A stretch of DNA of 60,181 bases, filler included. It is 5 parts of 5 records of this genome, joined end to end, with 100 filler letters (N's around TTAATTAATTAA, not from the genome) between each part and the next. Parts side by side here need not be neighbours in the genome. Positions count along the whole stretch, not along the records: positions 1 to 15,346 come from SRR31147125_24719; 4 more parts are not named here. The stretch is one strand, 5' to 3'. Under the pieces are notes generated by a model. It ran no database searches and was not told the origin of the DNA. It was given only the letters and a program-made list of their open reading frames with translations. A program made the translations under genes and the position numbers. Of the stretch, positions 153-29,419 are shown one piece after another (position 1 is the stretch's first letter; each line of letters starts with the position of its first letter).

Positions 153-509
153 CTATCCGAGAACCATGCTTTTACATGGTTTTACTGCCTTTGGCTGTGC
201 AATCGATAGCCCTTCCATGAGACATCTGTACTGCTGTTGTGTGATATGTTTTGCTTGCTCGGTTGACCTCGGCCATTGGAAGCTGCCGCGCTCCAGGCGT
301 TTGTACAACAGAACGAATCCGTCACCTTCCCAATAAAGCACTTTGATTCTGTCACACCGTCTGCCACAGAACAAAAACAAACTGTTTCCGAACGGATCCA
401 GCTCGAAGTTCTTTTGCACGATTAGTGCCAGCCCATCTATTGACTTTCTTAAATCCGTATATCCGCAGGCAATGTAGATGTGTTCTGCGCCGGTAAAATC
501 GCTTAGCAT
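153..509 (-). CDS. tnpB: IS66 accessory protein TnpB
   Basis: Motifs GYTDLRKSIDGL, LFLFCGRRCDRIKVLYWEGDGFVLLYKRLERG and FQWP. Confidence 0.95.
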   Translation of the reverse strand: MLSDFTGAEHIYIACGYTDLRKSIDGLALIVQKNFELDPFGNSLFLFCGRRCDRIKVLYWEGDGFVLLYKRLERGSFQWPRSTEQAKHITQQQYRCLMEGLSIAQPKAVKPCKSMVLG

Positions 510-634
510 ATCTTGGAGAGCGCTCGGAGCGCTGTTTCAATGGTTTCGGCGTCTGCACCATTGCGGATTCGTATTTCAGCACCTCCGAATTGCACGGTGA
601 CTGAGGCATCTGAACTCCGGCGAATTGGTTGCTT
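503..634 (-). pseudogene. tnpA: IS66 TnpA C-terminal fragment
   Basis: Frame reads ...SVTVQFGGAEIRIRNGADAETIETALRALSKIC* and overlaps the tnpB ATG. An in-frame TGA lies just upstream, so the 5' part is missing. Confidence 0.6.
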
Positions 635-755
635 ACGTCACAACCTGCTCACTATTTCCAACAATAACACTTTATTTCCTTTTGTGGGAATGCTTAAACT
701 TGAGCTCGTTAAGATTGTCCAATGAGTAGATCATGCCATTTCCCTAAGTCTTTAA

Positions 756-1930
756 CTACTCATGCCTTAAAGCAGATATCGGTTGTAACTTTGAAGCCTT
801 ATTTGCGGGACTAACACCAAAAGCTACTCCCACACCCAATGCAAACAATACCGACGTTCCCATCATGGAAATTGATATTGTAAACGATAAACCATAAGAA
901 GCCCCGATTATTCCCAAAATTGATACTATACCAACTGAAAGTAAAACACCAATTAAAGCCCCAAATAAACACAACATAACTGATTCAAAAAGAAATTGCA
1001 TCAGAATACTAAATCGACTTGCTCCAATTGCTTTTCTAATGCCAATTTCACGCGTACGTTCTGATACAGTTACCAACATGATATTCATAATCCCTATACC
1101 ACCAACAACCAGTGATATTGTAGCTATACCCCCAAATAAAATCTTCAATATGATTAGTACCTGATTTACAGTATCAACATTGGAAGTTTGATTATAAACT
1201 GAGAAAGCTTCTTCGTCTCCATAAAAATAGTTATTAAGTATATGCTCCATTTCATTGATCGCATTGTCCATATGCTCTGCGGAACAAGCAGAAGCCGCAA
1301 TGTAAGTAATTTGTCCTTGTTGAAATAGGTCACAAAAATATGTATATGGAATAAATGTGTCGCCGGCAAACAAAATACCTAAGTCTTTTTCCAACACACC
1401 TATGACTTTTAATTTCTGACCATTAATTATGACTTGATTTCCCAAAGCCTTTTCAGCCACTCCAAAAGTTTTTCCGCTACCGAAAATCTTAATACAATGA
1501 CATTCGAATTGTTTTGTACATCAACCCTTTTAATATTTCTACCACAAGCCAGTCTTTGCTTCAATATTCTACCAAATCCTGATGTTACCCCTGAAACTGT
1601 TGTTGTTTCACTAAAATTATTATAATGAATATCCGTTCCAGCCATTTCAGTGGTTGAGATATCGGCTATATAAGTACTATGGGCTTTAAAATCTTCAAGC
1701 TCGTTTAATGAGATTGGATAAGATAAATTCTTTATTGATGCCGAAAAAAAATTTGTTCCAATCGCGTCAAGCTCTGTTAAGACTCCTCTTGTAACGCCAT
1801 CAACAAGCGAAAGCAGAACTGTGATTGTTACAACCCCTATAACAATACCAATCATGGTCAGCAATGACCGCATTTTGTTACCTATAATGGACTTCCATGC
1901 CATTTTTAGTACTTGAGTTATCATTATCAC
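756..1930 (-). CDS. MacB/FtsX-family ABC permease (frameshift near 1430-1475 joins ORFs 1427-1930 and 756-1460)
   Basis: N-terminal NKMRSLLTMIGIVIGV; C-terminal GGIGIMNIMLVTVSERTREIGIRKAIGA and LQPISALRHE. Confidence 0.9.
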
Positions 1931-2628
1931 ATAGCCTCCAGAATTTGTCCATCAAATATAGCGACTGTTCGTTTAGCTCGTGAGGCAATATTGGTATCAT
2001 GTGTAATCAAAACCACGGTACGCCCTGATTGATTAATCTCATGAAATAGCGCCATTATCTCTGCACCAGTTTTAGAGTCCAAATTACCGGTAGGCTCATC
2101 AGCAAGAATAAGTGAAGGCTTCGTTACCAGCGCCCGAGCGATCGCCACCCGTTGTTGCTGTCCCCCTGAAAGTTCACTAGGTTTATGATGCATTCGATTC
2201 TCAAGTCCAACACGTTTAATAACTTCAGCCACCCGATTAACACGTTCTTTCTCGCGGACTTTTTGGTATATTAACGGTAACTCAATATTTTCCCAAGCAG
2301 TCATTTTATCGATTAGATTAAATCCTTGAAAAATGAATCCTATTGTTTGATTTCTTAGCCTAGCCAGCTCATATTCTGAAAAGTCTACCACAGGAACGCC
2401 ATCCAATACATATTCCCCTTCATCATACATATCCAAGCATCCTATGATATTCATAAGTGTAGACTTCCCGCTCCCGGACGGACCAATTATACCCACAAAT
2501 TCTCCATGTTCAATAAAAATATCAATTTTATCAAGTGCTCGAACTTGCTCATCCCCAATTTTAAATATTTTAGATATCCCTTGCATAGCGACTAAAGGAA
2601 GTGTTGTGTCCCCCTCATTATTCCCCAT
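1927..2628 (-). CDS. MacB/LolD-type ABC ATP-binding protein
   Basis: [23 protein letters not shown] and [11 protein letters not shown]. The GGAGG spacing favours a start at 2628 (alternative 2634). Confidence 0.92.
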
Positions 2629-4093
2629 TTCCATTCTCCTCCGTTTCCGGTAATAGCACAATATTTTCATAAAGAACAATATCACCCGTAACTAGCCCTG
2701 AAACAATCTGTACATAATAATCGTTTGCGATCCCTGTAACGATGTTCTTACGTATTTTATCTTGACCTGTTAAATCTCCAGATGGAGTAACATATACATA
2801 TTCACCGTCACCATCCTCCAAAACCAATTCTAAAGGTAAAATGACGCCTTTGTTTACACTGTCAATTGTGAAGGAAACCTTACCGTTCATACCAACAAGA
2901 AATCTTTTATTATCTGAAAGACTCAGTGTAATAACAAATGTTGTTATCCCATCTGTAACATTACCTAGATGGTTAATATCCGTAACTACCGCATTGAACT
3001 TTTCATTAGGAAATGTGTTTAACTCAATTTTCGCCTCTTGTCCGATAGATATTAGTGCAATATCTTTTTCGCCTAAGCTCGCTTCAAATTGACATGCGCT
3101 ATTGTTAATTAGTGTGAAAATAGGTGTATAAATACTTTCTTGCCCTACTACGTCTCCATTTGATACGTTTACCTCACTAATAATACCGGCTTGTTCAGCA
3201 ATTATATTAGGCGATACAATTAATTCATTTATTAGAACTAGCTTTCCGTTTAATCGATTATATTCCTCTACTAAATCATTGTATGTCTCTTTGATCTGTG
3301 CCTTCTTCCAAGTAATAAGCTTGTCACCAACAGATACCTTATCATTTATCTTTACATGTATTTTTTTAATATTGCTGTAATCTCCACGAATCGTTATAGG
3401 TGCGTTAATCTGCAATGTGCCCTCTCCTATTTTCTTATCATCCTTGAATATTTCAACATTTTCACCTACAAGTAATGAATCATCAAATATCTCAACGACA
3501 TAACTACCTGACATTACCATGTCGATAATACCATCAGCACTATTACCGTCTTTTAGTTTTACCTTAACATGAGACCCCATTGCAAAAGTCGTATCACTCA
3601 TCACTTCTACGCGCATCTTTCCATCTAAAGCAATGACGATCAGTGCTTCATTATCTTTACTTTGCGATATTGACTTTATCCTCCCGCTAACTTCTGCATA
3701 CGTAGTTTTCTCACTTTTGGTGGAATCCATTGATACAATCGTTTGCTCTAACTCTTTTATATTGGCGACACACTTTTTCTGTAGCTCTTTTAAAGCAACT
3801 ACATCAAGTGTCGCGAGCACATCACCCTCAGATATTGCCGTCCCTCTTTTAACCGTAACTTTATCAATTTGCACACCACTTAAAACAGATATATTCTGTA
3901 TATCACCACCAATCAATGCTCCTTTACCTGATACATTCTTTTCTAGCTTGTCTTCATCTACAACATAACTTTGATAGGTCGCTTTCGATTTTTCCATAAC
4001 CGTTATATTATTAACAACAACAATAGCAATTGCTATTATGATTAAGATGACTATAGTTAATACAATTCGTTTTCGCGCTTTAGTTTTTTTCAT
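2618..4093 (-). CDS. HlyD/MacA-like membrane fusion (efflux adaptor) protein
   Basis: N-terminal TM anchor, lipoyl-like hairpins (VKRGTAISEGDVLA, VSNGDVV) and a C-terminal TGIAND...SGL motif. It precedes the MacB-type ATPase and permease. Confidence 0.85.
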   Translation of the reverse strand: MKKTKARKRIVLTIVILIIIAIAIVVVNNITVMEKSKATYQSYVVDEDKLEKNVSGKGALIGGDIQNISVLSGVQIDKVTVKRGTAISEGDVLATLDVVALKELQKKCVANIKELEQTIVSMDSTKSEKTTYAEVSGRIKSISQSKDNEALIVIALDGKMRVEVMSDTTFAMGSHVKVKLKDGNSADGIIDMVMSGSYVVEIFDDSLLVGENVEIFKDDKKIGEGTLQINAPITIRGDYSNIKKIHVKINDKVSVGDKLITWKKAQIKETYNDLVEEYNRLNGKLVLINELIVSPNIIAEQAGIISEVNVSNGDVVGQESIYTPIFTLINNSACQFEASLGEKDIALISIGQEAKIELNTFPNEKFNAVVTDINHLGNVTDGITTFVITLSLSDNKRFLVGMNGKVSFTIDSVNKGVILPLELVLEDGDGEYVYVTPSGDLTGQDKIRKNIVTGIANDYYVQIVSGLVTGDIVLYENIVLLPETEENGNGE

Positions 4094-4318
4094 TTTAATT
4101 CCCCCTACAAATTAGTTTTAACATTTTTGTTTGTCATTTGTTTTGCAAATCATTTACGCCATCCGAATTTTGTTTTATTACTTGAAACTGCATTTATATT
4201 TCTTAGAGCTACTTAATTCACTTTTCGACCTTGAAAATATATGCCACTTCTTCTATCATTCTTCTGTAGTATTTTTCACATAATTCACCAATATGTAATC
4301 CTTTCTATTAGTTCTTTA

Positions 4319-6207
4319 TTATATAACGTAATCATCTTGTAATTGTTCATCTTGATAATACTGTGCTTGAGCGTTCCACAATTCATGATATTTGCCAGAT
4401 GCATCTAACAACAACTCTGTGTGAGTTCCATGCTGAATAATCTTACCCTTATCAAAAACCAAAATTTCATCACAAAAGCGACATGAGCAAAGTCTATGAG
4501 ATACAAAAATGGCTGTTTTTCCATTTGCAAATTTTTTAAAATCAGAATATAGATTATATTCTGATATAGGATCAAGTGCAGCTGTGGGTTCATCTAAAAT
4601 CATAATCGGAGCATTTTTGTATAAAGCCCTTGCAAAAGCAATTTTTTGAGCTTCACCACCAGATATTTCTTCACCAAATGCATCAAAATCTTTATAGAGA
4701 TTTGTGTTCATTCCATTTTTCATCATAGCATATCTGTCTCCAAACCCAGTCTTCTTAACTATGTCTTCCAAGCTAGAAGAATTATAATTTACTTGGCCAG
4801 AAATATTTTGACCTAGGGAAAATGAGAATAATGAAAAATCTTGAAACACAACAGATATTAATTTTATAAAATCTTTAAATTTCAGCTTTGCAACATCCAA
4901 ATTATCAATAAGAACCTGCCCTATTGAAGGGTTATATAACCGGCATATTAGCTTTACAAATGTTGTTTTCCCAGAGCCGTTTTCTCCGACAATTGCATAC
5001 TTTTTCCTTCATCTAATTTAATGGAAATTCCATTGAGCGTATATGTATTATTGGATGGGTACTTGTAATAAACATCTTTAAATTCAATATTATACGATGA
5101 TACAAGGCATTTTTCCCCTTCTTTATTATCATCTTGAGCTAAGTTTAAATAATCAAAAGTATCTTGTAAGTACTCAGTATTTTTTACTAATCTACCTATT
5201 ACAGCACACATTTCAGTTACACTTAGAATAAATTGCTTTGAAACGCCGGTATACTGAATAAAATTACCAATTCCGAAGGCACCAAAATATGTTTTAATAC
5301 CAACAAACATATAGATAATGATATCAACAATTGTTAATAATGTAACCCTAATCTTTCCGTAATGGTTATGTAACTTCGAAATTTTTTCAATGTATACTGG
5401 TTTAATTGTCCATTTGTTTATTTCTTCCATAATTTTATCTATTTGTCGATATATGCGTATATCCATTGCTCCAAAGTTGTCCTTGAGACTTCTTCGAAAA
5501 TAATTAAGCAGTCGATTAGATTCTGGTAGTTTACGCCATTCATCACACTCTTTTTTGAATTCCCTATTGCTACATGTAAGTGATCCGAAAATACATAATC
5601 CAATTATTGTTAGCACACCAATATGTAAAAACGGCGAGTTAAGACTAACATTCGCTACGGAATTTGAAGGAAGCATTTTAATGAACATACCAATACCAAG
5701 AATGATTGACAATACAATCGAGCAAAATGAAGTAACTCCCGAATGAAGTGTATAAAATAGCATACCTAATCCTGCGCTAGTTGCATTTTGATTTGTTTTG
5801 ATTTTATTTTTTAGTAGTCTTACTTCTGAACTTTCTAATAAATTAAACGGCATTTTATTGTTAACTTCATTAAAAAATATTTCAAGCCGCGCATTCCATT
5901 GATTAGCATGAACTTCAAGTCTATTTGCAGAAAACTCTCGAATAAAGGATAAGATAAGTTCAGAAATCAAAACTATTATCACAGCTTCTATAATTTTCTG
6001 CAAATCTTTACTTGACGTTAAAATATTAATAACTTGTGCTGAAAAATAAAGCGCAACAAAAGGAATAATCGCTGTGGCAATGGCATTTATTACGTTCCAC
6101 AAAACATATGCTTTATCCAATTCCCAAATAATTTTATAACCTTTGCCAATCAACGCAAGTCCTTTTTTATTTTCTTTGCTGAATTTACCATCACTCACAA
6201 CTTCCAA
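4319..6207 (-). CDS. ABC exporter, fused TMD-NBD subunit B (frameshift near 5000 at the Walker A region)
   Basis: TM domain in ORF 4954-6207; ISGGEAQK, ILDEPTAALD and FVSHR in ORF 4319-4900. Confidence 0.88.
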
Positions 6208-6226
6208 TCCTCCGCTTATGGATTTC

Positions 6227-8020
6227 TTATATTAGTTCAGCATTGCTTTCGGCATGATAATAATGACCTTGAATACTAAATAATTCAGAGTACTTTCCAT
6301 TTTGTTTTATTAATTCATTATGACTTCCTGTTTCAATTATTTCTCCGTTCTCCATATAGAGAATTTCATCACAAAATCTTGTTGAAGCTAGACGATGAGA
6401 TATAAATATCGATGTTTTGTCCAATGTCATACTATTATACTTCAAATACATATTTTTTTCGGCAATTGGATCAAGCGAAGCTGTTGGTTCATCCAATATG
6501 AGGACTGGCGCATCTTTATACAAAGCGCGCGTTAATATTAATTTTTGTTTTTCTCCTCCAGATAGTTCTATTGCATTAGGAAACACCTCTTGTACCAACA
6601 GAGTCTTTGCCCCAGCAGGCAACGAAGCTAACTTATCTGATAATCCTGCCTGTTTGATACATGCTGCAAGTTTAAGTTCGTTAATGTTATCACAAGCAAT
6701 ATTTTTTTCAATTGATAAGGGAAGTAAATGAAACTTTTGAAATACAACAGAAAATAATCGATAATAATCATCACGGTTGTATTCAAAAACAGAATGCCCG
6801 TCTATTAGAATTTCCCCTTTAGTAGGAACGTACATTCCGCATATTAGCTTTACCAAAGTTGTTTTTCCGGCTCCATTCAATCCAACAATAGCCATTTTTT
6901 TGCCAGCATGGATAGTAAGGTTTATATTCTTCAGCGTTGGTTCATCCGCTCCCGGATAAGAATACTCAACATTGCGAAATTCAATGGTGGGTTTCTCTGA
7001 AGAAATTGTCACACCTATATTTCTATTAAGTTTATCTTCAATTTCCAAATATTTTCTTAGATCTCTTATCTGATAATTTCCACGAGTAAGAGCGGAAAAG
7101 TTGTTTAACAAGTCACCTAATATATTAACAAATTGACTAATTGCTGCAAAGTACAAAATGAAACCTGCAACACTTATTTCTCCATTAATAGTAAATGATA
7201 TTAAATACCAATACGCTAATCCGTCACGAGCAAGTATTACAATCAAGTCGATAAAAACAGAAAGAATTTTTCTCCTAGCTAGCTTGTTAAATAAACTAAA
7301 ATGTTCTTTGAAAAACATTTTAGATAGATCAGAAATCCATTTACCCAAACCATAAATACGAATATCTTTGCCGAATCGAAAGTTCTCGGAGATTCTTGAT
7401 AAATAATCAAGTTTTCGAGAAACAGCAACGCGTTCATCCTTTGTTTTGTTTTCATAATGATTTGAGTATAAGATAGTTAAATATTGAAGCCCTGCCGCTA
7501 TCAAAAGCCCCGCAATAATTAATGGATTTAGTATAAAGATTAATGAGCCAAATAATGCAAATTTCAATAATGCTATTAGTAACTGAGCAAAACTATTAGG
7601 GACGTGGATTGCTTCTGTATGATTATTTGAAACAGCTGCATCTGCACGCTCAGCCATAATTTTGGTTCTAGGATCTTCTAAATGCGCATAATCAATATCT
7701 AAATTTTTCTTATATAGCAGTGATAAATAATGCAAGACGAGCTTGTGCTCAGAGACATATTTCTTTGAATCAAGCTTATTAGAGATTATACTAAGAATCC
7801 ATCTTATAAGGAGAAATCCTGCAATAATTAATATCACTTGTAAAAGTGCAGTATTCGCCGATTCAAATTCCCTTACAATCGCAGCAGGCATAACAAGATC
7901 TATTACGGCAAGCAATAGTGTCACAGGAATACTAAGAACAGCAGCGATCGCCAACGTTTTGTCCACTTCCCATATATTTTTAAATACAAATCTTATATTG
8001 CTCGTAAATTTGAACTTCAT
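6227..8020 (-). CDS. ABC exporter, fused TMD-NBD subunit A (no N-terminal C39 peptidase)
   Basis: GLNGAGKT, LSGGEKQK, ILDEPTASLD and FISHR, after a multi-TM N-terminal domain. Confidence 0.93.
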   Translation of the reverse strand: MKFKFTSNIRFVFKNIWEVDKTLAIAAVLSIPVTLLLAVIDLVMPAAIVREFESANTALLQVILIIAGFLLIRWILSIISNKLDSKKYVSEHKLVLHYLSLLYKKNLDIDYAHLEDPRTKIMAERADAAVSNNHTEAIHVPNSFAQLLIALLKFALFGSLIFILNPLIIAGLLIAAGLQYLTILYSNHYENKTKDERVAVSRKLDYLSRISENFRFGKDIRIYGLGKWISDLSKMFFKEHFSLFNKLARRKILSVFIDLIVILARDGLAYWYLISFTINGEISVAGFILYFAAISQFVNILGDLLNNFSALTRGNYQIRDLRKYLEIEDKLNRNIGVTISSEKPTIEFRNVEYSYPGADEPTLKNINLTIHAGKKMAIVGLNGAGKTTLVKLICGMYVPTKGEILIDGHSVFEYNRDDYYRLFSVVFQKFHLLPLSIEKNIACDNINELKLAACIKQAGLSDKLASLPAGAKTLLVQEVFPNAIELSGGEKQKLILTRALYKDAPVLILDEPTASLDPIAEKNMYLKYNSMTLDKTSIFISHRLASTRFCDEILYMENGEIIETGSHNELIKQNGKYSELFSIQGHYYHAESNAELI

Positions 8021-8065
8021 TTTCTACAATCACCAATCTATAATCAAATATTTCTAAAACCTTGA

Positions 8066-8581
8066 TTATTCACATATATATTGTGTACCAATATTACCGA
8101 GGCTCTCAAATCCGGCATTCTTAAACGTTTCCTTATCGCTCACACTATATACATAATTCCCATTATGCGCCATTACATAAAACTCTGAATACTCCGATTC
8201 GTATTCGTCAAATACAGAAACAGCGTCCTCTTCAGAAAGCCCATAGCATATGTCAATGTAATGATTCCCTTTGCTTGCGTATATTCTCTCTGCTAAAATC
8301 GTTGTATTTAGCGCCTCGTCATATTCGGAAATTTCATACCCTTTATCTTTTAAATTTTGTATTAGCTCAGTTTTTTGCGGAACAATTTGATTAATATCAA
8401 ACATATCCTCATTTACTTCCCCTTTTTCGTCCACAAGATTTGCAACATTTATTTCAAAGTTAGCAATACCATAGTTACGTGTAATATTCAAATGCTTGGT
8501 TTCTGCTTGGCAAGATGAGCAGAACAATATTCCTGCAAAAAAAGCTGATATAACAATTGATCGTATATTTTCTCGCTTCAT
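8066..8581 (-). CDS. Putative lipoprotein or secreted protein (possible immunity)
   Basis: Basic N-terminus, hydrophobic stretch and Cys (LFCSSC), with a GAGGGAG RBS. It lies between the precursors and the exporters. Confidence 0.65.
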   Translation of the reverse strand: MKRENIRSIVISAFFAGILFCSSCQAETKHLNITRNYGIANFEINVANLVDEKGEVNEDMFDINQIVPQKTELIQNLKDKGYEISEYDEALNTTILAERIYASKGNHYIDICYGLSEEDAVSVFDEYESEYSEFYVMAHNGNYVYSVSDKETFKNAGFESLGNIGTQYICE

Positions 8582-8689
8582 AATATCTCCCTCTTTTGAA
8601 AGCTAGATCACAATCCAAGCGTTCCGATATTCAACGCAGAACGCCTGAATTGTTTACTATGTAAAACATGACGTTTGGCAACTTTGGTG

Positions 8690-8839
8690 TTAACTGCAGC
8701 CGCGGTTTGTTATAGGACAAGTATTTACTCTTATTACCCCAGGACAGTTTCCCGTACAATTAGTGTTTTCATCAAAGAGCATGGCAGTATCCAACCTTTC
8801 GAGTACAATCTTTTTCAAAAAATAGAATTTCTTTTTCAT
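8690..8839 (-). CDS. RiPP precursor peptide 6 (49 aa)
   Basis: MKKKFYFLKKIVLERLDTAMLFDENTNCTGNCPGVIRVNTCPITNRGCS*, with RBS AAAGGAGG. Confidence 0.9.
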   Translation of the reverse strand: MKKKFYFLKKIVLERLDTAMLFDENTNCTGNCPGVIRVNTCPITNRGCS

Positions 8840-8880
8840 TTTGCAAAGCCTCCTTTCTATAAATTATAATGTGAAATCTA

Positions 8881-9009
8881 CTAACATCCAATATTTGTTA
8901 CGGGACAAATATTAACGTCCTTTATTGGGCAGCCACAATTTTGGTTTTCAGCATATACCTCGAAGCATAACAAGGATTCATCGACTGCTTTTTTTGAACA
9001 CTGAAACAT
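8881..9009 (-). CDS. RiPP precursor peptide 5 (42 aa)
   Basis: MFQCSKKAVDESLLCFEVYAENQNCGCPIKDVNICPVTNIGC*, with RBS AAAGGAG. Confidence 0.88.
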   Translation of the reverse strand: MFQCSKKAVDESLLCFEVYAENQNCGCPIKDVNICPVTNIGC

Positions 9010-9032
9010 ATCCGCATCTCCTTTCTGCCAAC

Positions 9033-9176
9033 CTAATTACATATGCCTGTGTTGTTACAAACCTTGTTAGATCCCGGACAATTTGCAGTATTCGTACAAG
9101 TATTTGTTTCGGCATATAAGGTGACACTTTGTTTGCTTTCTATTATTTTCTTTTTCCGAAATACATATTTGAACAT
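9033..9176 (-). CDS. RiPP precursor peptide 4 (47 aa)
   Basis: MFKYVFRKKKIIESKQSVTLYAETNTCTNTANCPGSNKVCNNTGICN*, with RBS GGGAGG. Confidence 0.9.
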   Translation of the reverse strand: MFKYVFRKKKIIESKQSVTLYAETNTCTNTANCPGSNKVCNNTGICN

Positions 9177-9195
9177 TTTTATTCCTCCCAACTTC

Positions 9196-9363
9196 TTAGC
9201 ACCCTACATTTTGGGAAACGCAATATGCCGTGTTTGTTGCTCCATTTCCAGCAGAACACTTGGTATTAGTTGATGTGCACGGCGTGTTTTGCACGACCTC
9301 AGCGTAAAGACTTAAATCCATTAGATTTTCTTTTACTTTTTTCACAAACGTTATTGTTTTCAA
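9196..9363 (-). CDS. RiPP precursor peptide 3 (55 aa, TTG start)
   Basis: MKTITFVKKVKENLMDLSLYAEVVQNTPCTSTNTKCSAGNGATNTAYCVSQNVGC*, with RBS AGGAGG. Confidence 0.9.
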   Translation of the reverse strand: MKTITFVKKVKENLMDLSLYAEVVQNTPCTSTNTKCSAGNGATNTAYCVSQNVGC

Positions 9364-9382
9364 AATAAATTGCCTCCTAACT

Positions 9383-9517
9383 TTAGCATAAGTTCGTTAC
9401 CGGACAAGCAATATTCTCCCCTGGTACAGGATTGCAACCGCAATCAGTATTTTCCCCATACAAACTTATATGAGCGAGATTTTCATTTATATTTTTTTTA
9501 TTAAACGTAACATTCAT
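9383..9517 (-). CDS. RiPP precursor peptide 2 (44 aa)
   Basis: MNVTFNKKNINENLAHISLYGENTDCGCNPVPGENIACPVTNLC*, with RBS GGAGG. The true start lies inside track ORF 9383-9631. Confidence 0.9.
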   Translation of the reverse strand: MNVTFNKKNINENLAHISLYGENTDCGCNPVPGENIACPVTNLC

Positions 9518-9660
9518 AATACATAGCCTCCAAAAAAGCACCTTATTTGTTCTTAACGTAACTTCACACAATTTCGAAAGCATAAAGGAGAAAAAAACAT
9601 AATGTTGCTCATTACTCCAATACGCTTTCAAAATCGATACTAGACGTTTTTACGTTTGGA

Positions 9661-9798
9661 TCAACCACCGCAAACGCCATCAATAGGGCTGTTGCACACA
9701 CCATAGTCATTACAGTGTAAGTTTGTATTACTCTCTCCATAAAGTACGGCGTTCTTCATACTTTCCATAACAAACTTCTTAACAAATACCAATTTCAT
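9661..9798 (-). CDS. RiPP precursor peptide 1 (45 aa)
   Basis: MKLVFVKKFVMESMKNAVLYGESNTNLHCNDYGVCNSPIDGVCGG*, with RBS AAAGGAG. Confidence 0.9.
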   Translation of the reverse strand: MKLVFVKKFVMESMKNAVLYGESNTNLHCNDYGVCNSPIDGVCGG

Positions 9799-9884
9799 AG
9801 TTTACTCTCCTTTCTTTATTAATTATATTGTGGTAAATGAGTGTTTTCTGCGAAATCTGCAGCTTTCGCCTCCACAATAAAAAT

Positions 9885-10447
9885 CTACATTTCGTTTATA
9901 ATAGTCATAGCAAAAATATGAGTTTCTGGATTTTCTGGTAATACAATTTCTTTAACGCCATTATTCATTAAGATAATATTATGATAAATATTTAATTTGC
10001 AAAATCCATTACTCTGTACTCGAACTGCTATTTGGCATGTATCGTTTTTTTCACAATCGTATAATGATGTAATATTTTCAGACATTGAATAAAAACAAAG
10101 CGTATGATTATGTATACAGTCATCTTTGTCAGTACAAACAACTTTGTCTTTATAAATGCCAAATTCATTAAACCCTAGAATGGCAAGGGCATTGCAATGA
10201 ATATCTGGAAAAACTATTTGTTGCCCTCTGCAAATAATATTGTCCAATTCACTTTTCTGACCATACACCCTATAACGGATGCCCCCAATATATCGCTCTA
10301 TTAAAACCTCTGCGAATCGCGGATCACTAATACAACTACCGGCAACACCAACTTGATCTATCATTGTGTCATCTATTAGTTCGTTATCACCCATCATCTT
10401 ATGAGAAAAGTAGCTACTTATATCAACGGGATAATATTTTTTTTCAT
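9885..10447 (-). CDS. Hypothetical cluster protein (about 187 aa; likely start 10447 with a frameshift in an A8 run)
   Basis: GGAGG plus an ATG overlapping the upstream TGA. One extra A gives MKKKYYPVDISSYFSHK in frame with ORF 9885-10397. Motifs DNIICRGQQI and LPENPETHIFAMT. Confidence 0.7.
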
Positions 10448-11415
10448 ATTATCCTCCTGGATGCCGAATCCATCAAATTGAACAAGTTCTCATACCATCT
10501 ACTAATATATGGTCTTATTGATTCTGCCTGTAACGCAAGTGCATTGTGACTCCTCTCACTCGGAGCAATATCGCATTTAATACCAAATGTACGTATTAGG
10601 TTTAATCCTTTTAATAAAGCACTTGTACAGTCTATTTGAACTCCTGCCATGTTTTGCAACCAGTCTTCACGCTGAAAAGATTTTATAACTTCTGTAAGTA
10701 AAGTGGCAAATTGCAAAGGTAGCTTGTCCCGTGTTTTAGCAATATCAATTAGCTCATTCATAAACCTATACAACGATATGTTAGATTCTGTTAAACGTTC
10801 AGTCATATCCTTGCATCTATTACAATATTGTTTTAACATGTTTTGATTTTGGTTGTTTTTCTCACTGCGAGAAAATACTATCATATTTAGATCATCTTCC
10901 TTATCATTATAGCCTTTCTTATATGCTTCAACAAAATCTGCAAAATGCATTTTATAATGCTTATATATCGCAGAAACAGTCGTTTGATGTTCAATAACAT
11001 CAAATTCCTTTTTTATTTGATCAAATCCAAAAATCAAAATATAATGTGTTGTGAAACTTTTCTGAGTTTTCTTCATGGTATCAGGATCAGATGCAACTGC
11101 TTCAATTACCTTACACATAACCAAAGATCCCATTAATAAATAGTCTATTATTACTCTAATAATGTTTGAATCGTAAATGTTGGTAATTTGTGTTATAATT
11201 CCGGCTTCTATTTCCAATTCCTGTCGTGTTTTATGTTCAAACTGTGTGACACAAAAACCATCATGCCAATATCTAAAATAGCAACCTAAGTTTAAAATAT
11301 AAGCGAATTCGCTACCACCAAGAGCAGAAAAGGCTGGAATATAACCATATTCAAAGCAACTTCCTAATGCAAACTGGTTAAATGGTTGTACTTGGTGAAC
11401 TATACTATCCGCCAT
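10444..11415 (-). CDS. BtrH N-terminal-like / papain (C39)-like fold protein, putative acyltransferase or peptidase
   Basis: N-terminal QPFN...SCF Cys motif and THYILIFGFD His motif. Confidence 0.55.
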   Translation of the reverse strand: MADSIVHQVQPFNQFALGSCFEYGYIPAFSALGGSEFAYILNLGCYFRYWHDGFCVTQFEHKTRQELEIEAGIITQITNIYDSNIIRVIIDYLLMGSLVMCKVIEAVASDPDTMKKTQKSFTTHYILIFGFDQIKKEFDVIEHQTTVSAIYKHYKMHFADFVEAYKKGYNDKEDDLNMIVFSRSEKNNQNQNMLKQYCNRCKDMTERLTESNISLYRFMNELIDIAKTRDKLPLQFATLLTEVIKSFQREDWLQNMAGVQIDCTSALLKGLNLIRTFGIKCDIAPSERSHNALALQAESIRPYISRWYENLFNLMDSASRRII

Positions 11416-11436
11416 AATACTTCTCCTTTGAATGCG

Positions 11437-11658
11437 TTATTCAAGCTCCATTAATTTTTTTGCAAGTTGCTTAATCTTAGCTTTTGGAACTCCGATAATT
11501 GCACCAAAATCGTCTTCAATTATCTCTCTTAATGTATAGTTCAGCGCTTCTGAAAATCTTGGATGGCGAGTTATTGTTGGTAATGCTTGTGAAATCATTT
11601 TAACCGCCTGTTCATTGTTCATTACCTCAGAAAGTGACGAATTCATTGTAATCTTCAT
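11437..11658 (-). CDS. Small hypothetical protein (73 aa)
   Basis: AAAGGAG RBS and co-oriented within the operon. Confidence 0.7.
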   Translation of the reverse strand: MKITMNSSLSEVMNNEQAVKMISQALPTITRHPRFSEALNYTLREIIEDDFGAIIGVPKAKIKQLAKKLMELE

Positions 11659-11753
11659 TTAAATATCTCCTTTATAATAATATTATTTCATCAGTCTTTA
11701 TAATTGTAATTATATTGATGATGAAACATTAGTTGCTTTTGGAAAGAAGTACT

Positions 11754-13566
11754 TCATGCACTTGCATCTTGATTGTCTAAATCACATTCACTGGCTTCTG
11801 ATGTGCAATAAAAATTAACTATGCTTTCGAAAATTACAGAATCATCACGCTTATCACCAGATACAACTACTGGAATACCAAGTTCTTTCATTAACCTCGA
11901 CTTGATAATTTCAATTTCGCTATCTGTTAATAACCTTTTCGAAACGTCTATAACGTAATCTTTCTCTGTATGAAATGCATAGAGTGCTAGTAAAAATACT
12001 TTTGCACCACACAAGCTCTCAATTGCAGTTATTGCTTTTTTTATGTATTCCAGTTCATCTGATTCATTAATGGATAAAACAACTCCATCTGGTAGAATAC
12101 CGTATAAAAAGGCAAACTGATTAATGTTTATATGACCTAAGTTATAGGTTGCATGAGGTAAAAACCCGGATTGACCACCAACTAAAATTAAATCTTTTTC
12201 TTTCACATCAATCTTATGTATTTGGTAATTAAATGCCTCAATTATTTCAGTTCCTGTCTTTTGACTTAAAACACTATCATATCCTAATGGAAGCATCGCA
12301 TCACAGCCAAGCAAGCTCGCATTAGGTTCTGTACCAAGAACACCCAGGTCAACACCATTTTCTATCAATACACGTTTAATCTGCATTTGCAACGTAAATT
12401 TTCCTTGCTTCTTATTTGTACCAAGAACACATAAAATGGGTGTTTTAATTTGATATAACCGCCCCTGCTTTTCCTTTATTGAATAATTATCAGCATACTC
12501 CAGCGTTAATCCACACTCGTTAAATCTTTGAGCATATTCATCTACCAAAACACTATCAAAGCAATAAACGTTTTTTTTGTATTTAAGGCATTCCAACATA
12601 AGCTCTTTTTTAATGTCCTTGCCAACTAACATACTTAATTCACGAAGATGTCCGATAATCAAAGTATCAAATGAATTCCAATCACATTTATCTATATTTT
12701 TTACTGTAAAATGTTTTTTACCACTAAAGCTCTGAAGAGCACGCCCTACGTTTGTTGAATATTTAACATCATAAATATCAATTAAATCAACCCTTAACAT
12801 ATCAGCATAATTGATCAGCGAATAAACCTCTTTATTTAGGGGGAATACCGCTGCTTTTGTTTCTAAAACCATGTTTCTTTTTATATCTGTTGTCACTTTA
12901 TATTCATTATTAAAAATCTTCATGGCCTCAACTTTTGTATGAAACTCTCGGTTTTGTTCTAATAAGGCAAGCGATACATACGAAGCAGCAAAGCTATTCC
13001 CTTGTTCTGCCGTAAATCCCTTTTGATTATTTGATGCTACAACCTGCATACCGCTTTTTGCATATAAATCTAAAGTGCCTCCGTAGTTCACAGAAAATTC
13101 GTGCTTAGTTTTTATAAACGGATTACCAGAAACTCCAATTACAAATGAGAAAGCTGCCGGGTATGAAATAGCACCACAATTGTCAAAAGCAGCAACAATA
13201 ATCATTCCTTTTTTCATATAGCTTTTGACATACATTAAGTAAATCTCTGCTGAATCCCCGTACACCAAAGCTCATTTGTATAATTTTGCAGCTTATATTT
13301 TCATAGACATAATATAATGCAGACAAAATACCATCAATATTACTCATGGTAACGCTTGTAAATGCTTTAAAAACAGCATAATTGCCAGAGTGACCTTTTT
13401 GCACAATTGATAATACTGCTGCCCCGTGACCAATCTCATCTTTATCATTATACGTTAATACCCACTCATTACCATTGAACGTATAAACATCAACGCTTGA
13501 ACTTAAATGTTGTAAATCATATCCCGAATCTAAGAGAATCAAATCATAATTCTTTTTACAACTCAT
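11754..13566 (-). CDS. S8 subtilase fused to a DUF1611/TIGR04066-like P-loop domain (frameshift at T-run 13209-13214)
   Basis: Catalytic triad LLDSG, GHGAAV and GNSFAAS, with AAFDN and SYPA. C-terminal CVLGTNKKQGKFTLQ. Removing one A restores KLYEKGMIIVAAFDN. Confidence 0.8.
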
Positions 13567-13605
13567 AATAAACCACCTTTTTTCGCAGCTAAAAAGTTAA
13601 ATTTG

Positions 13606-13848
13606 TTACGCTTTTAACGGTAATATAACTTTATCCAAAAAGTCCAGCAACGTATATTCGTTTATATTCACAGAATACGCATCATCAGGTATCCAAACAT
13701 CAAACTCTTTTTCTACTTCTATAAAAAAAGAAACTAGTGAGAGCGAATCAAGTATCACGTCTTTAATCTGAAGCATTTCATTGAACGACTCTAAATAAAC
13801 ACCAATATTATCCAACACTATTTCAATCTTCACTACATCTTCTCGCAT
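13606..13848 (-). CDS. Acyl-carrier-protein-like (phosphopantetheine-binding) protein
   Basis: 80 aa and acidic, with an LDSL serine motif followed by FFIEVEKEFDVWIPDD. Confidence 0.85.
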   Translation of the reverse strand: MREDVVKIEIVLDNIGVYLESFNEMLQIKDVILDSLSLVSFFIEVEKEFDVWIPDDAYSVNINEYTLLDFLDKVILPLKA

Positions 13849-13858
13849 ATTCTATACC

Positions 13859-15171
13859 TCACATAGTTTTAAAAAGTTCTGGCTTATGTTTATATAGCGA
13901 TATAAACTCATTCTCACATTGATCACAATTAGGGAATCCTTCAGATGCCACATGATGTATTGGACATAGCACTCCAAAGCAGTTTGCATATAAAGCACAT
14001 TCCTCACATTTCGTTTCTTTCTTTACTGGCGGCGCAGCCGGATATCTCCATTTTGAGTAATTTTTGATATCTTCAACGAAATCTCCGTTTCCATCAATTT
14101 CTCCAATCTTGTTATAATCAGAATTCAAATTTACCGTACAGCGCATAACATTTCCATTTGGATCAATCGTATAGGTTCCACATTTTGCAGCATAGCATAT
14201 TTGATTTTCAAAGTAAGGATGATGCCCGTTTAACTTCAGCGTCGTATCTAAGGCATCTAATTTTTCAAGTATTGGATTTTTTGAGTGCTTAGTATCATGA
14301 ATTAAAGTATCCGAAATTTTTTCTATTGTCGTGCCCCCCCAATCTCCAACTGCCTTAAAAAGAAACTCGAACCTGTTATCTCCTCCAAAGTTCTCCTCAA
14401 GTTCTCTAACTTGATTATCTAGATCGGCTAAGGTGTCACTCGTTAAATTAGTTCGTACTAATATCTTAAATAGTTTTGACTTGCAATTATTCTTTATATC
14501 TAGTAAATTTTTTAGAATAGCATCATAAGTAGGTCCTCCCCCGACAAGAGGTCTTGTTTTATTATGAAACATTGCGCGTCCATCAAGCGTAATTTGATAA
14601 TGTGTTACTCGGTATTCTCTAAATAATTTTTTAAAAGTTTCATAATTCAACAAATATCCATTTGTTGTTATATTTGAGGAGTAGTTTTTGCGATAAGCCC
14701 GAGCTAAAGACATAAGCCTATTACTCAGCTTTTCAATAACTTTCAAGCATAGTAATGGCTCTCCGCCAAACCAACTAACATGGAGCGCTTTTTCTCTTTG
14801 TAGTTTTTCTTCGCAAAATTTACTATCCTATCAATTACTTCATCGGTCATTATGCCAGGCACCTTTTCTTCATAACAATAAGGGCAACGGAAATTACACA
14901 TCATTGTTGGCAAAATAATTAAATCAAGAATACCATCGTCTATAATAGACATATATTTCAAGAAAGCTCCTTTGTCCTCATCAAAATCGGAATCATTAAC
15001 AATGCCTTGTTCTTTCATGAAGCATAAGGTGTCTTCCTTAAGAGTATTAGGATCAGTAGTTTCGTATAGGTGCTTACTTAAACGCGTAAATGAACCTACT
15101 AAAGTATTAAAAATCAAAACTTCTTTGTCAACGTATGCTTTGTAATTGTATTTAGACCATTTAAATTGCAA
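13859..15171 (-). CDS. Radical SAM/SPASM peptide maturase with an N-terminal RRE-like extension (frameshift near 14775-14810)
   Basis: CNFRCPYC. The second frame supplies SWFGGEPLL, TTNGYLL and QITLDG, then SPASM cysteines CYAA...GNVMRC and CEECALYANCFGVLCP. Confidence 0.92.
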
Positions 15172-15270
15172 ATCATTACTCCTTTATTGCTTGCGCTATT
15201 CTAGATATTTTTAGTTTACTTATCTTTATTTGTATTTATTATTAATTATTCTTATTATTGTTGTGTTTAT

Positions 15271-15299
15271 ACTATATCAGGTTATTTTGTTTTTATCAA
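15271..15299 (-). promoter_or_regulatory. Putative sigma70/SigA promoter of the RiPP operon
   Basis: TTGATA-17 nt-TATAGT with an extended -10 TG, about 100 nt upstream of the rSAM start. Confidence 0.5.
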
Positions 15300-15346: not shown

Positions 15347-15446
15347 NNNNNNNNNNNNNNNNNNNNNNNNNNNNNNNNNNNNNNNNNNNNTTAATTAATT
15401 AANNNNNNNNNNNNNNNNNNNNNNNNNNNNNNNNNNNNNNNNNNNN
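15347..15446. other. Artificial contig linker
   Basis: N44-TTAATTAATTAA-N44, which has stops in all six frames. Confidence 0.98.
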
Positions 15447-22712: not shown

Positions 22713-24406
22713 TCAGTGTTTTTCCCTCATTATGCCCAATATTTCCTCCCAAGGCTCAACAAAATGATTATCAGCCCAATTGTCCCACATTTTAGACATT
22801 TCATCAACTAATTCTGGAAATTCGTATGCAATATCATTCATTTCTGATCTATCCTCGACAATGTTATACAATTCCCATTGATTTAGTTTGACACTCTTCC
22901 ACTTCATAACTAATTTGTATTTCCCTAACCGAACAGCTTTATTTCCTTCATGCTCCCAAAAAATTGGTTCATTATGAATTGGTTCATTTCCCCCTTTAAT
23001 TACTGACACCATACTTTCCCCTTGAATTGGATGAATTATATTACCATTATATTCTAAAGGATAATCTGCTTTGGCTAAATCAATAAAAGTTGCCATAATA
23101 TCAGGTATAAATCCATATTGTTCAACAAACGTTCCATTTTCATCATCAGGAATACCGCTAGGCCAATGAACAATACAAGGAGAAGAGATTCCTCCTTCGT
23201 GTACCCAGTGTTTATATTCACGTAAAGGAGTGTTGGAAGTATTTGCCCATCCACCTCCATAAGTTAAGAAATAGCCTTTTTTTGTCTCTAAAATATCTGC
23301 TGCCCCACCTCCAAACTCACCGCCTTCTTCACAAGCTCCGTTGTCATCAATAAACACAATTATTGTATTATCTAAAATTTGTTGTTCTTCCAGATATGAA
23401 ATCAACTTTCCAATATTCTGATCCATGCGATCAACTTGAGCAGCATAAATGGACATTCTTAATGCCATCTCCTTTTTTTGCGTTTCATCTAAACTATCCC
23501 ACTCTCGAAAATCTCTTGGAGGTAACTCACAATCATCATTCACCAAGCCAATTTGTTTCATCTTTTCATACCGTCTTAGTCTTATCTCATCCCACCCACA
23601 GCTATAAGTATCTCTGTATTTATCAACATCTTCTTTCATTGCATTTAATGGCCAATGAGGCGAAGTAAAAGCCAAATAGAGAAAAAATGGATTGTCTGGT
23701 TTTGTGCTTTTGCATCATCAATAAATTGAATCGCATTCGTTGTAAAAGCATCTGTAGTATAGTAGTTTTTATCTGTAATTGTAATCGTATCATTATTGAG
23801 TGTAATCCCTCGTGGATATTTCGGTTCAAAATAATTACTTGCACCATCAAGTATCCCATAATAGCGGTCGAATCCACGTTGTAAAGGCCATTGTCTTGTG
23901 AATTGCATACCCAAGTGCCACTTCCCCGTCATCAATGTTGTATACCCAGCTTCTTTTAAGACTTCAGCAATTGTGAGACATTGATTATTTAATGCTCCCC
24001 GGTATCCGGGCAATCCGCAGTCATGTCCGGAAAAATCTTCTGAAGGGTTTGTCATATGCCCAATTCCGGTTTGATGTGGGTATAAGCCAGTCATAAGTGA
24101 TGCTCTTGTAGGACAACAACGTGCATTATTATAGAATTGGGAAAACCGAATTCCATTATTGGCAAGCTTATCTAGATTAGGTGTACTAATTTCGCCACCA
24201 TAACATCCAATATCTGAGAATCCCATATCATCTGACATAATCAAAATAATATTTGGACGTTCCAGATTTCTGTGATTTTCTTTTTCATTCGCACATGAAT
24301 GAAAGATTATAAAGAAAAATGCTGCTAGTATTAGTCTATAACTCAAGTTCATATTCATTAATTTTCCCAATACTGATTTTCTATGATTCATTTTAATCAA
24401 TAACAA
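22713..24406 (-). CDS. Arylsulfatase (S1, AtsA-like), frameshift near 23685; start probably downstream of 24406
   Basis: PNIILIMSDDMG, CCPTRASLMTG and GKWHLG; the second ORF has AFTSPHWPL and FWEHEGN. Confidence 0.9.
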
Positions 24407-24455
24407 TCGTTATACTTTATTGAGGCCATCCATCAAGGACAGCCTCAAATTAGAA

Positions 24456-25927
24456 TTAATATCCAATGTTTTGAACTAAATTTTCATTAGCATCAATCTC
24501 AGGCTGAGGAATAGGAAATAAACGATGAAAAGGTTTAGCTAAAGTCTTTCCTCTATCCAAGGCGTTTTGAATAAATCTGTCATGTCTGAGTAAATCTTCT
24601 CTTCTTTTTGCTTCATTAAAAAACTCCCATTTTCTCTCATCAAGTATTTTATTTATAAAGGTAGCTTGGTCAGGAATGTCAGTAAGTGTATAATCAGGTA
24701 GTCCAGCTCTATTTCTTACCGTATTTAATAAGTCTAGTACTTCTTGCGAAACAGATCCCGTAGACATTACCAATCCTTCTGCTTTAATTAACAAAATCTC
24801 AGCATATCTAACCAAAGGGACATCTTGCCCCCTATTTCTGGAGCTGCAGCAGTCTCATCAATAGAATACTTAAAACTTCTTGGGTGATTATATTTATTAC
24901 CTGTTGGTCCTTCATTAGGGTCAAGCAAATTTACAAATACCCCACTTCTTGTATAATATTCGGTAATAATCAACTCACTCCTTTTATCGTTTGCATCAAA
25001 CGTATTATAAAAAGGAATAGGAATAGTTGATTGTGTTGCCGCATTTACCACGTCAGTAGGATAATCTCCTGGTAGCATATTTCTAATTATACCGTTTCCT
25101 ACAGAATTTGAAGTACCTAGATAAGGGAAAACAAATATCAGTTCTTTATTTCCTTCATTATCTAATGAGAAAATATCGGCATAATTGGGTAATAATTGGT
25201 ACTCCCCTAAATTCATTACATCCTGTGCAGTTTTTGCTGCATCTCCCCATTTCTTTCTGTTTAACTGGTACTGAGCCAACACACCTAAAGCTGCGCCTCT
25301 TGTAGCTCTTCCATATTCGGTCTCTGGTCTGGTTGTTGGCAACATAGGAGCAGCAACGGTCAATTCAGAAATAATAAAATCCTCAATTTCTTGATTTGGA
25401 GTATTCGTAGGGAAAAGATCCATTGTCGTTTCGGTAACAAGTGGAACGCTCCCAAACCATCCTTGAAGGAATCGATAAGCCGAGGCTCTAATAAACTTAG
25501 CCTCACCAAGATACTCAGACTTAAGTTCGTCGCTCAATACCGGATTGTTTGGAATCTCTGTAATCAATATGTTAGCATCTCTGATGCTTTTATAGCCATC
25601 TGTCCAAAAACCACCAATAATTTGAGTATGACCTGGATCAAAGTTAAATTCCTGATATTTATTCGTAACATTGTTAAAAAACCACGCTTCATAATTAAAA
25701 AACATATCGGTAGTCATTTCTTCTATATGAATCCGATTTGCACCACCTTGATCCAAATACCTAAAATGACCCCATGCAGAAGCTAAAAGTGCCTCAATAC
25801 CTTCTTGTGTATCCAGAAAAGCCCCTGAAAATTCTGAAGCAGGTTCAATATCCAGTGGTTCTTCGCAGCTCACTACAAAACCGCCCAGTAAAAAAGTATA
25901 AACTAAATATTTATATAATAATTTCAT
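24456..25927 (-). CDS. susD: SusD/RagB lipoprotein (frameshift near 24825-24830)
   Basis: Lipobox VVSC and GEAKFIRA; C-terminal RYAEILLIKAE, ERKWEF and FPIPQPEID...LVQN. Confidence 0.9.
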
Positions 25928-29338: not shown

Positions 29339-29419
29339 AAATTTGTGAATGTAAAGGTTATACAATAATCCCTCTTAGGGGTTAAAAACCATGATTCATG
29401 TTTTCGGCATGAATTTTAC

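Follow-up and report, generated by a model that had tools for sequence, protein, structure and literature searches.

The nearest described counterpart of the gene cluster reported here is the CcpM system (families TIGR04065 to TIGR04069), which combines a radical S-adenosylmethionine (rSAM) enzyme, a DUF1611-type protein, a small protein shaped like an acyl carrier protein (ACP), Cys-rich precursors and an ABC exporter. In the canonical ccpM locus, on a plasmid of Clostridium tagluense (L113), the TIGR04066 protein stands alone, neither an S8 protease nor a ligase is encoded, and the "ACP-related" proteins lack, by eye, an Asp-Ser-Leu-type motif. We analyzed a 60,181-nucleotide stretch of DNA (the window) whose first contig (SRR31147125_24719) carries, on the minus strand from position 15171 to 756, a cluster with the same kinds of components but of a different build: DUF1611 is fused to an S8 subtilase, the ACP has the serine, and a CtaG-like ligase and conserved proteins of 73 and 170 amino acids (aa) are added. 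It is a genuine, conserved and uncharacterized cluster of the type that makes peptides synthesized by the ribosome and then modified post-translationally (RiPPs), with an unexpected carrier-protein ligase module.

Other known systems share parts of this gene set. Ranthipeptide clusters of the NxxC (NxxcA/NxxcB) and PapB types are simple, with a precursor, an rSAM enzyme and a transporter; they resemble the present cluster in directing a SPASM-type rSAM enzyme at Cys-containing cores, but have no ACP, S8-DUF1611 protein or ligase. In the maturation of quinohemoprotein amine dehydrogenase, the thioether-forming SPASM enzyme QhpD is paired with QhpE, a cytoplasmic subtilisin-like protease that removes the leader; the substrate there is an enzyme subunit rather than a secreted peptide, and ACP, DUF1611 and ligase are again absent. 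The azinomycin proteins AziU3 and AziU2 carry out sulfate elimination on a carrier-bound amino acid, a chemistry without an obvious substrate here. CtaG-type ligases were introduced in 2026 as enzymes that assemble peptides independently of the ribosome, with a Cys-His-Asp triad and ping-pong transfer from carrier-bound thioesters; BtrH, AsbE, MllDE and CcbD are named as relatives, and CtaG, BtrH, AsbE and CcbD all use carrier-bound acyl donors (PMC12865890, excerpts). The members known so far belong to non-ribosomal or aminoglycoside pathways; the protein described here, by contrast, is encoded in a ribosomal peptide cluster. Finally, lipolanthines, goadvionins, lipoavitides and selidamides undergo leader removal followed by N-terminal acylation, as in the pathway proposed below, but by GNAT acyltransferases, and the RiPP acylations named in the excerpts of a further 2026 paper are all GNAT-dependent (PMC13647313). 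The present cluster has no GNAT and instead has a candidate papain-like ligase with an ACP of its own.

In the literature searched, which left most subscription journals outside, the identifiers TIGR04065 to TIGR04069 occurred only in genome-mining lists, DUF1611 only in unrelated papers, and BtrH together with RiPP only in taxonomic papers. No system joining a ranthipeptide, an ACP and a radical SAM enzyme is described in it, and no paper in it reports a CtaG-type ligase and a serine-bearing ACP syntenic with rSAM or DUF692 maturases and ribosomal precursors. With such a ligase and an ACP inside a RiPP cluster, the thiotemplated and the ribosomal routes to peptides seem to be bridged.

The first-pass annotation of the window had listed one co-oriented run of genes, and family scans bore this list out. 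In the order of transcription, the features are as follows, with the evidence given last; open reading frames (ORFs) that belong to one split gene are joined by a plus sign.

13859 to 15171, minus strand: radical SAM/SPASM peptide maturase, split into ORFs of 142 and 295 aa (14743-15171 + 13859-14746); family scans and alignment with intact relatives
13606 to 13848, minus strand: ACP-like protein, 80 aa, with DSL serine; ACP models at E 1e-5 to 1e-3, below cut-off
11754 to 13566, minus strand: cytoplasmic S8 subtilase in fusion with a P-loop module of the DUF1611 family (TIGR04066-like), split (13183-13566 + 11754-13268); family scans
11437 to 11658, minus strand: conserved 73-aa protein; synteny in L095 to L097, 39-46% identity
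10444 to 11415, minus strand: putative CtaG/CcbD/BtrH-type papain-like ligase of the carrier-protein-dependent kind, 323 aa; profile and fold evidence
9885 to 10397, minus strand: conserved 170-aa protein; synteny in L095 to L097
9661 to 9798, minus strand: precursor 1, 45 aa; shared leader and Shine-Dalgarno-like stretch, as for all six precursors
9383 to 9517, minus strand: precursor 2, 44 aa from the ATG at 9517
9196 to 9363, minus strand: precursor 3, 55 aa
9033 to 9176, minus strand: precursor 4, 47 aa from the ATG at 9176
8881 to 9009, minus strand: precursor 5, 42 aa
8690 to 8839, minus strand: precursor 6, 49 aa
8066 to 8581, minus strand: 171-aa putative membrane-anchored protein or lipoprotein with a hydrophobic, Cys-containing N-terminus; homologue at the same place in L096
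6227 to 8020, minus strand: ABC exporter, fused permease and ATPase, 597 aa; family scan and a 47% identical homologue in L096
4319 to 6207, minus strand: second ABC exporter, split (4954-6207 + 4319-4900); family scan and a homologue in L096
2618 to 4093, minus strand: HlyD-type membrane fusion protein (MFP); family scan
1927 to 2685, minus strand: MacB-type ABC ATPase; family scan
756 to 1930, minus strand: MacB/FtsX permease, split (1427-1930 + 756-1460); family scan

In the family scans, the 73-aa and 323-aa proteins matched no family above threshold and the 170-aa protein matched none at all. For the 73-aa protein, a profile search of the PDB likewise gave nothing below E 0.35, and in the ESM Atlas the 73-aa and 170-aa proteins fell only into unnamed clusters. 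The 171-aa protein, whose only Pfam match was a weak one to DUF7829, is a candidate immunity protein by inference.

Conservation of the gene order was evident in other contigs. A metagenome scan gave 17 loci with the S8-DUF1611 fusion, and the fusion loci number 24 overall. In three of these loci, designated L095, L096 and L097, the rSAM, ACP, S8-DUF1611, 73-aa, 323-aa and 170-aa genes stand in the order seen in the window; the rSAM enzyme, the ACP and the fusion are 52-62% identical to those of the window, the fusion alone 57-62%. In L096 these genes are followed by four precursors that share the leader (LY[GAD]E), a homologue of the 171-aa protein and the ABC pair. The possibility, raised in the first-pass annotation, that the genes would not be syntenic elsewhere is thus set aside by all three loci. 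Since the same genes occur in the same order on other contigs, their co-occurrence is more than chance. Upstream of the rSAM gene, L095 has unrelated genes and L096 has two divergent genes that resemble, by eye, a response regulator and a kinase; the operon therefore probably starts at the rSAM gene in the relatives as in the window. In L095 (9508-12039) and L096 (8220-10748), a gene for a fused ABC ATPase-permease of 842-843 aa lies between the fusion and 73-aa genes; the window is without it and has the MFP/MacB set downstream instead.

Beyond these close relatives, the S8-DUF1611 fusion forms a family of 586-600 aa with 287 matches, and identities ranged from 31 to 69% among the 120 listed. 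Eight pairs of rSAM enzyme and fusion have the length of their longest contig in common, a hint that the two are linked. Of the 24 fusion loci, 17 gave the rSAM profile, 17 an ACP and nine a 323-aa homologue, and several loci lacking them are truncated. Since part of the sequences behind the ACP and 323-aa profiles came from these very loci, five detections of the ACP and four of the 323-aa protein are independent. The 73-aa and 170-aa proteins are confined to the close subfamily. In a family-level genome sample, the S8-DUF1611 protein was present in 6/401 genomes at 28-39% identity, and in two phylum-level samples, which drew the same genomes, it was present in 0/401 each. These two were centred on a record titled Bacteroides uniformis and on a Faecalibacterium genome, and the genome of the former may thus be assigned to the phylum of the latter.

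The six small ORFs, each preceded by a Shine-Dalgarno-like stretch as judged by eye, encode precursors with a common leader of 21-24 residues that ends in LY[GA]E or a close variant. The cores that follow comprise 21-33 residues with three or four Cys each and many Asn and Thr. Asn occupies position -3 of Cys at 12 of the 23 Cys in these cores, compared with a mean of 4.2 in shuffled cores, and none of 5000 shuffles reached 12; with the four cores of L096 added, the count is 18/39. This spacing recalls NxxcB, which links the Cys of NxxC to the beta-carbon of Asn and also accepts Asp, Gln and Ala in place of that Asn (PMC9389541 and PMC13361665, excerpts). That one leader heads six different cores suggests that nature has built a small library of bridged peptides here. 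None of eight precursors, six from the window and two from relatives, matched any NCBIfam model, TIGR04065 (CLI_3235) included, at E up to 10. An extra precursor gene lies between the ACP and S8-DUF1611 genes in L095 (7510-7635), L097 (1252-1374) and L100 (2226-2354), a place where the window has only about 40 bp.

The rSAM enzyme has the residues expected of a SPASM maturase. The CX3CX2C motif (C96, C100 and C103) and seven C-terminal SPASM Cys (C327, C346, C390, C393, C399, C404 and C417) were invariant in 11 close homologues; the two pieces in the window carry these Cys, and the intact relatives are 433-444 aa long. The window enzyme passed the SPASM model TIGR04085 with 29.3 bits against a cut-off of 27. 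About a dozen relatives lie at 52-59% identity, the closest at 59%, and a gap follows down to 40% or less. The surmise that no characterized family claims this enzyme agreed with the hidden Markov model scores of the rSAM maturase families in NCBIfam (TIGRFAM), all of which were far below the cut-offs. For P0001, an intact close relative, the scores (cut-offs in parentheses) were 171.5 for Clo7bot (600), 161.3 for TIGR04463 (525), 147.6 for CefB (600), 132.6 for FlmE/OhkG (500), 116.8 for PapB (340) and 83.2 for CcpM, TIGR04068 (500). Six other rSAM models outscored CcpM for P0001, and the pieces in the window gave 19.1 and 34.6 bits with the CcpM model.

Regarding the bond formed, we hold with moderate confidence that this enzyme makes thioethers. 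The best characterized relatives among the NCBIfam matches of P0001 are thioether formers (PapB at the score given above, the SCIFF maturase at 66.9 bits and QhpD at 61.8 bits), and each core offers three or four Cys with a strong NxxC spacing, a likeness to NxxcB in motif. It is rather unlikely that the enzyme instead makes cross-links other than Asn-beta-thioethers, such as sactionine bonds (Cys to C-alpha), gamma-thioethers, or C-C or C-O bonds. Such a course would suit an enzyme that stays below every family cut-off and whose best matches are Clo7bot, TIGR04463 and CefB. For these three families we know of no established chemistry. In addition, Asn or Asp at position +4 of Cys was mildly enriched in the ten cores (14 observed, 8.4 expected, p 0.022). 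SPASM enzymes of similar sequence are known to form different bonds (PMC10288494, excerpts). When contigs were scanned with a profile from the rSAM alignment, the relatives among the best 80 loci were at most 36% identical, and tblastn found the ACP, S8-DUF1611 and 323-aa genes in 0/80 of these loci. Among the matches listed, the closest rSAM relatives from isolate genomes, 33-35% identical, include that of Streptococcus mitis (L002, 9541-11188), where the gene adjoins a small ORF with an N-x-x-C motif in its C-terminal part and then an ABC transporter.

The ACP keeps a DS[LIM] serine at the aligned position in 13/13 homologues, as expected of a functional carrier. It scored 16.8 bits with TIGR04069 (cut-off 70) and 20-25.5 bits with ordinary ACP models, also below cut-off. 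In the fusion, the S8 half has the catalytic residues of a subtilase, D11, H45 and S193, together with the oxyanion residue N131, all invariant in 13/13 homologues; the pieces in the window carry the S8 catalytic motifs, and the P-loop is present in the intact homologues, which are 586-595 aa long. Its translation has no N-terminal signal sequence. PDB profile matches of the fusion were intracellular subtilisins at E 3.5e-8 and the structure 2g0t, and the closest NCBIfam model of the S8 half in 13/13 homologues was QhpE, at 73-77 bits against a cut-off of 165.

The DUF1611 half passed the Pfam model DUF1611_C (44.2 bits, cut-off 25) and covered positions 2-357 of the 361 in TIGR04066 at 72.6 bits, short of the cut-off of 200; 13/13 close homologues likewise match TIGR04066 below cut-off. 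The cluster had been taken for a divergent relative of the TIGR04065-69 system. This held for the DUF1611 half, which aligns with TIGR04066 from end to end, but not for the scores of that half, the ACP and the rSAM enzyme, nor for the precursors. Because all scores are far below the cut-offs and the link rests on the DUF1611 module, the connection to the TIGR04065-69/CcpM system is, to judge from these profiles, real but remote. DgcN, another DUF1611 protein, is said to be an acetyl-CoA-dependent N-acetyltransferase, and a DgcN model matched neither the fusion nor its homologues in the NCBIfam scans. In L113, a unit of two genes, one a Cys-rich ORF of 67 aa and the other "ACP-related", is repeated (571-9768); agr-type quorum-sensing genes and a LytTR regulator adjoin them, and transposases flank them.

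The 323-aa protein had been labeled BtrH/papain-like. Alone, it gave no match to BtrH_N and matched only Guanylate_cyc_2 of the C39 clan, at E 0.0044. The family as a whole, however, reaches the CtaG/BtrH group via its own profile, which matches proteins that pass or approach BtrH_N. A profile of the 323-aa protein and three homologues found 301 proteins among 1.84 billion representatives; in 47 of the 150 listed matches, the protein is longer than 600 aa and the match lies at its C-terminal end. All 13 of these that were scanned were of the nonribosomal peptide synthetase or polyketide synthase type, with a PP-binding domain just before the match in 11/13 and BtrH_N there in 7/13. In a 56-sequence alignment, Cys20 and His124 were the only invariant columns. 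The AlphaFold model built from this alignment (mean predicted local distance difference test score, pLDDT, of 96; a model from four sequences had reached 62 and was not used) places Cys20 at a helix start and predicts an alpha/beta domain to about residue 183 followed by five helices over 193-322, the fold of the CtaG/BtrH ligases. Comparison using Foldseek and VIA-align gave full-length matches to AziU3 (Z 17.0, 283 residues aligned), the CcbD-PCP complex (Z 15.1, 284) and CtaG (Z 14.0, 277), whereas single-domain papain-like structures gave Z of 11.6 or less. Identity to the known ligases is only 10-12%. An earlier profile-profile comparison of four family sequences with four BtrH_N-like neighbours of distant loci had given no match (probability 0.4%) and is superseded by the library-wide search.

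On this profile and fold evidence, which sustains the earlier label, the designation that suits the 323-aa protein best is that of a carrier-protein-dependent ligase of the CtaG/BtrH type. That its donor would be carrier-bound is suggested by context, namely the ACP in the same operon and the relatives fused after PP-binding domains.

Whether such a ligase would act on the peptide was weighed against the possibility that the cassette of ACP, DUF1611 and ligase leaves it unacylated. The cassette might build a separate small molecule, or perform AziU3/AziU2-like chemistry other than acyl transfer on a carrier-bound substrate, or the ACP might be a docking or chaperone subunit for the protease. 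AziU3 is, after all, the best structural match of the 323-aa protein. The only PDB profile matches of the neighbouring 170-aa protein were to AziU2, through a short motif (E 0.58-0.64 over 34 residues, not significant), so that this protein is possibly an AziU2-like partner of the ligase; a complex prediction for the 323-aa and 170-aa proteins scored 0.00, which makes no call either way. The serine-less "ACP-related" proteins of L113 and the absence of a loading enzyme of a known kind from the family scans of the cluster also fit this alternative. On the other hand, the serine is kept in 13/13 ACPs of the family, the Cys-His pair is invariant in the 56 ligase homologues, the relatives directly follow carrier domains in 11 of the 13 megasynthases scanned, and the cassette stays with precursors and leader motif when the maturase changes from rSAM to DUF692, as described next. 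We therefore regard a role outside peptide acylation as unlikely.

The change of maturase was seen on Bacillus plasmids. An S8-DUF1611 fusion 29% identical to that of the window occurs in six records, on megaplasmids of Bacillus albus, B. mycoides and two further Bacillus isolates. In the one record examined, a B. albus plasmid (L112, 2180-9085), an ABC transporter, a PP-binding protein and two 44-aa precursors precede the fusion, which is followed by a DUF692 protein in place of the rSAM enzyme, a 247-aa protein and one of 326 aa, which the ligase profile picks up at E 5e-14. The leader of these precursors ends in ..TLYMGE before a core rich in Cys and Gly. ACP, S8-DUF1611, ligase and LY..E junction therefore appear, by comparison of the two loci, to travel together while the main maturase changes. 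Because the motif goes with the cassette and not with the maturase, LY..E is likely to be the recognition site of the protease or of the cassette; because cassette and motif stay together across maturases, the cassette would be a finishing step on the peptide. Its presence on plasmids of cultured Bacillus isolates makes experiments feasible.

Here, we propose a pathway model for the cluster. The SPASM rSAM enzyme would bind the six precursors and bond the sulfur of each Cys to carbon in a residue close by; in view of the recurrent NxxC spacing, the products would most likely be Cys-to-Asn beta-thioethers of the NxxcB kind. The cytoplasmic S8 domain would then cut off the leader after LY[GA]E, as its conserved catalytic residues and the co-travelling motif suggest. 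Subsequently, the ligase would take an acyl or aminoacyl group from its thioester linkage on the ACP and move it onto an amine, which is most likely the new N-terminus of the core because most cores have no Lys. The carrier would be loaded by the DUF1611 P-loop domain, a role assigned by elimination since it is the only nucleotide-binding enzyme in the cassette. Finally, the ABC pair and the MFP/MacB pump would export the product or protect the producer. If the model is true, it provides the first testable role for DUF1611/TIGR04066 proteins.

We have high confidence that this is a RiPP cluster in which the genes have these roles in outline. The complete explanation, from bridged cores through S8 cleavage and transfer by ACP and ligase to export, is slightly favoured, and acylation of the peptide through ACP and ligase is a tentative proposal that we would not yet count on. 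A new peptide class is possible. We also considered a more far-reaching version, a hybrid class whose NxxC thioether cores are freed by S8 and then acylated or extended from holo-ACP by the CtaG/BtrH-type ligase, with DUF1611 as a new kind of carrier loader. In it, ACP, S8-DUF1611, ligase and LY[GA]E would constitute a portable module serving unrelated maturases, rSAM in rumen and gut contigs of the Firmicutes type and DUF692 on Bacillus megaplasmids; as a whole, this version is rather doubtful.

Several points weigh against the proposed pathway. Every chemical step is our inference, in distinction to gene content, conservation, catalytic residues and fold, which were established from the data. 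The rSAM enzyme reaches the cut-off of no maturase family in NCBIfam. The NxxC statistic overstates independence, since the cores are homologous and the shuffles ignore relatedness; a few inherited motif positions may inflate the enrichment. Most cores are without Lys, which leaves the N-terminus as the only obvious amine. CtaG-like proteins were present in only nine of the 24 S8-DUF1611 loci, and five of these nine had contributed to the alignment behind the profile. For the third catalytic residue of the ligase, D132 and E142 are candidates. Structurally, the 323-aa protein comes closest to AziU3/U2, which forms aziridines and is no ligase (PMC12865890, excerpts), and the 170-aa protein beside it bears a faint likeness to AziU2, which partners AziU3. 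TIGR04066-type DUF1611 proteins are without an established function, and family scans of the cluster genes revealed no adenylating enzyme, acyl-ACP synthetase or phosphopantetheinyl transferase. Furthermore, the frameshifts could be real decay, and the host is uncertain since the window may be of mixed origin; both points are taken up below.

As assembled, four genes are split by a frameshift, each in a run of five or six A: the rSAM gene (A5, about 14789-14793), the S8-DUF1611 fusion (A6, 13209-13214), the second ABC exporter (A5, 5001-5005) and the MacB permease (A5, 1469-1473). In relatives the same genes are single frames, to which both pieces of the window match. Genes on other contigs of the window are split as well, namely a sulfatase (model positions 169/170), a SusD-type protein and an amidohydrolase (249/259). 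The sulfatase (22713-24406) and the amidohydrolase (34441-35810) each consist of two ORFs whose breaks lie at consecutive model positions, and so the frameshifts are not special to the cluster. Given the A5-A6 runs, the intact relatives and the split genes elsewhere, we read the four frameshifts, with good confidence, as homopolymer errors of a draft assembly.

The opposing view, that they are real mutations and that this organism carries only the decaying remains of a cluster, no longer functional, draws on the fact that four of about 13 larger genes are broken, two key enzymes among them, on an IS66 gene at the flank and on the relative L095, where the 170-aa gene is apparently also split. 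However, each of the four breaks is a shift by a single base within an A5-A6 run, further stops or deletions are absent, the pieces match intact relatives over their whole length at 52-62% identity, and split genes of the same kind on other contigs are what an assembly prone to homopolymer errors would produce. Decay is thus quite unlikely. At the break of the MacB permease, beside the A5 run, an imperfect tandem repeat of about 20-21 nucleotides was noticed by eye (1440-1480, minus strand), which twice encodes a similar stretch of seven residues.

The window itself is a pseudo-molecule in which at least five contigs are strung together, possibly in arbitrary order. The joints, at 15347-15446, 31214-31313, 38668-38767 and 52904-53003, each consist of N44, a 12-base linker with stops in all frames and N44. 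Two features bound the cluster upstream.

15347 to 15446, no strand: contig joint, upstream limit of knowable sequence; N44-linker-N44
15271 to 15299, minus strand: promoter-like site upstream of the rSAM gene; consensus TTGATA-17-TATAGT with TG extension, 10/12

Only about 175 bp of sequence separate the start of the rSAM gene from the contig end, so the completeness of the cluster cannot be read here; the description "apparently complete" was at odds with this break and with the four frameshifts. The cluster is a variant of a catalogued but unstudied kind; in this assembly, what are probably sequencing errors damage it and the end of a contig truncates it. The promoter placed near 15285 corresponds to the best-scoring site on the minus strand (15299-15271), but this is only a consensus match, and the number of such sites (68) equals the expectation from shuffled sequence (68.9 +/- 7.5).

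The adjoining contig contains a split SusD-type protein beside a 1141-aa ORF, in addition to the split sulfatase (22713-25927 and 25940-29365). SusD is typical of Bacteroidota. The closest relatives of the cluster are labelled Ruminococcus or Eubacterium, and its GC content is 0.30-0.35, compared with 0.37-0.42 in the adjoining contig. On account of the SusD gene, the labels of the relatives and the GC difference, the pseudo-molecule may mix organisms, or the contig of the cluster may be foreign. At the 3' edge of the cluster, the first gene downstream of the MacB permease encodes IS66 Orf2 (TnpB_IS66; 153-509, minus strand).

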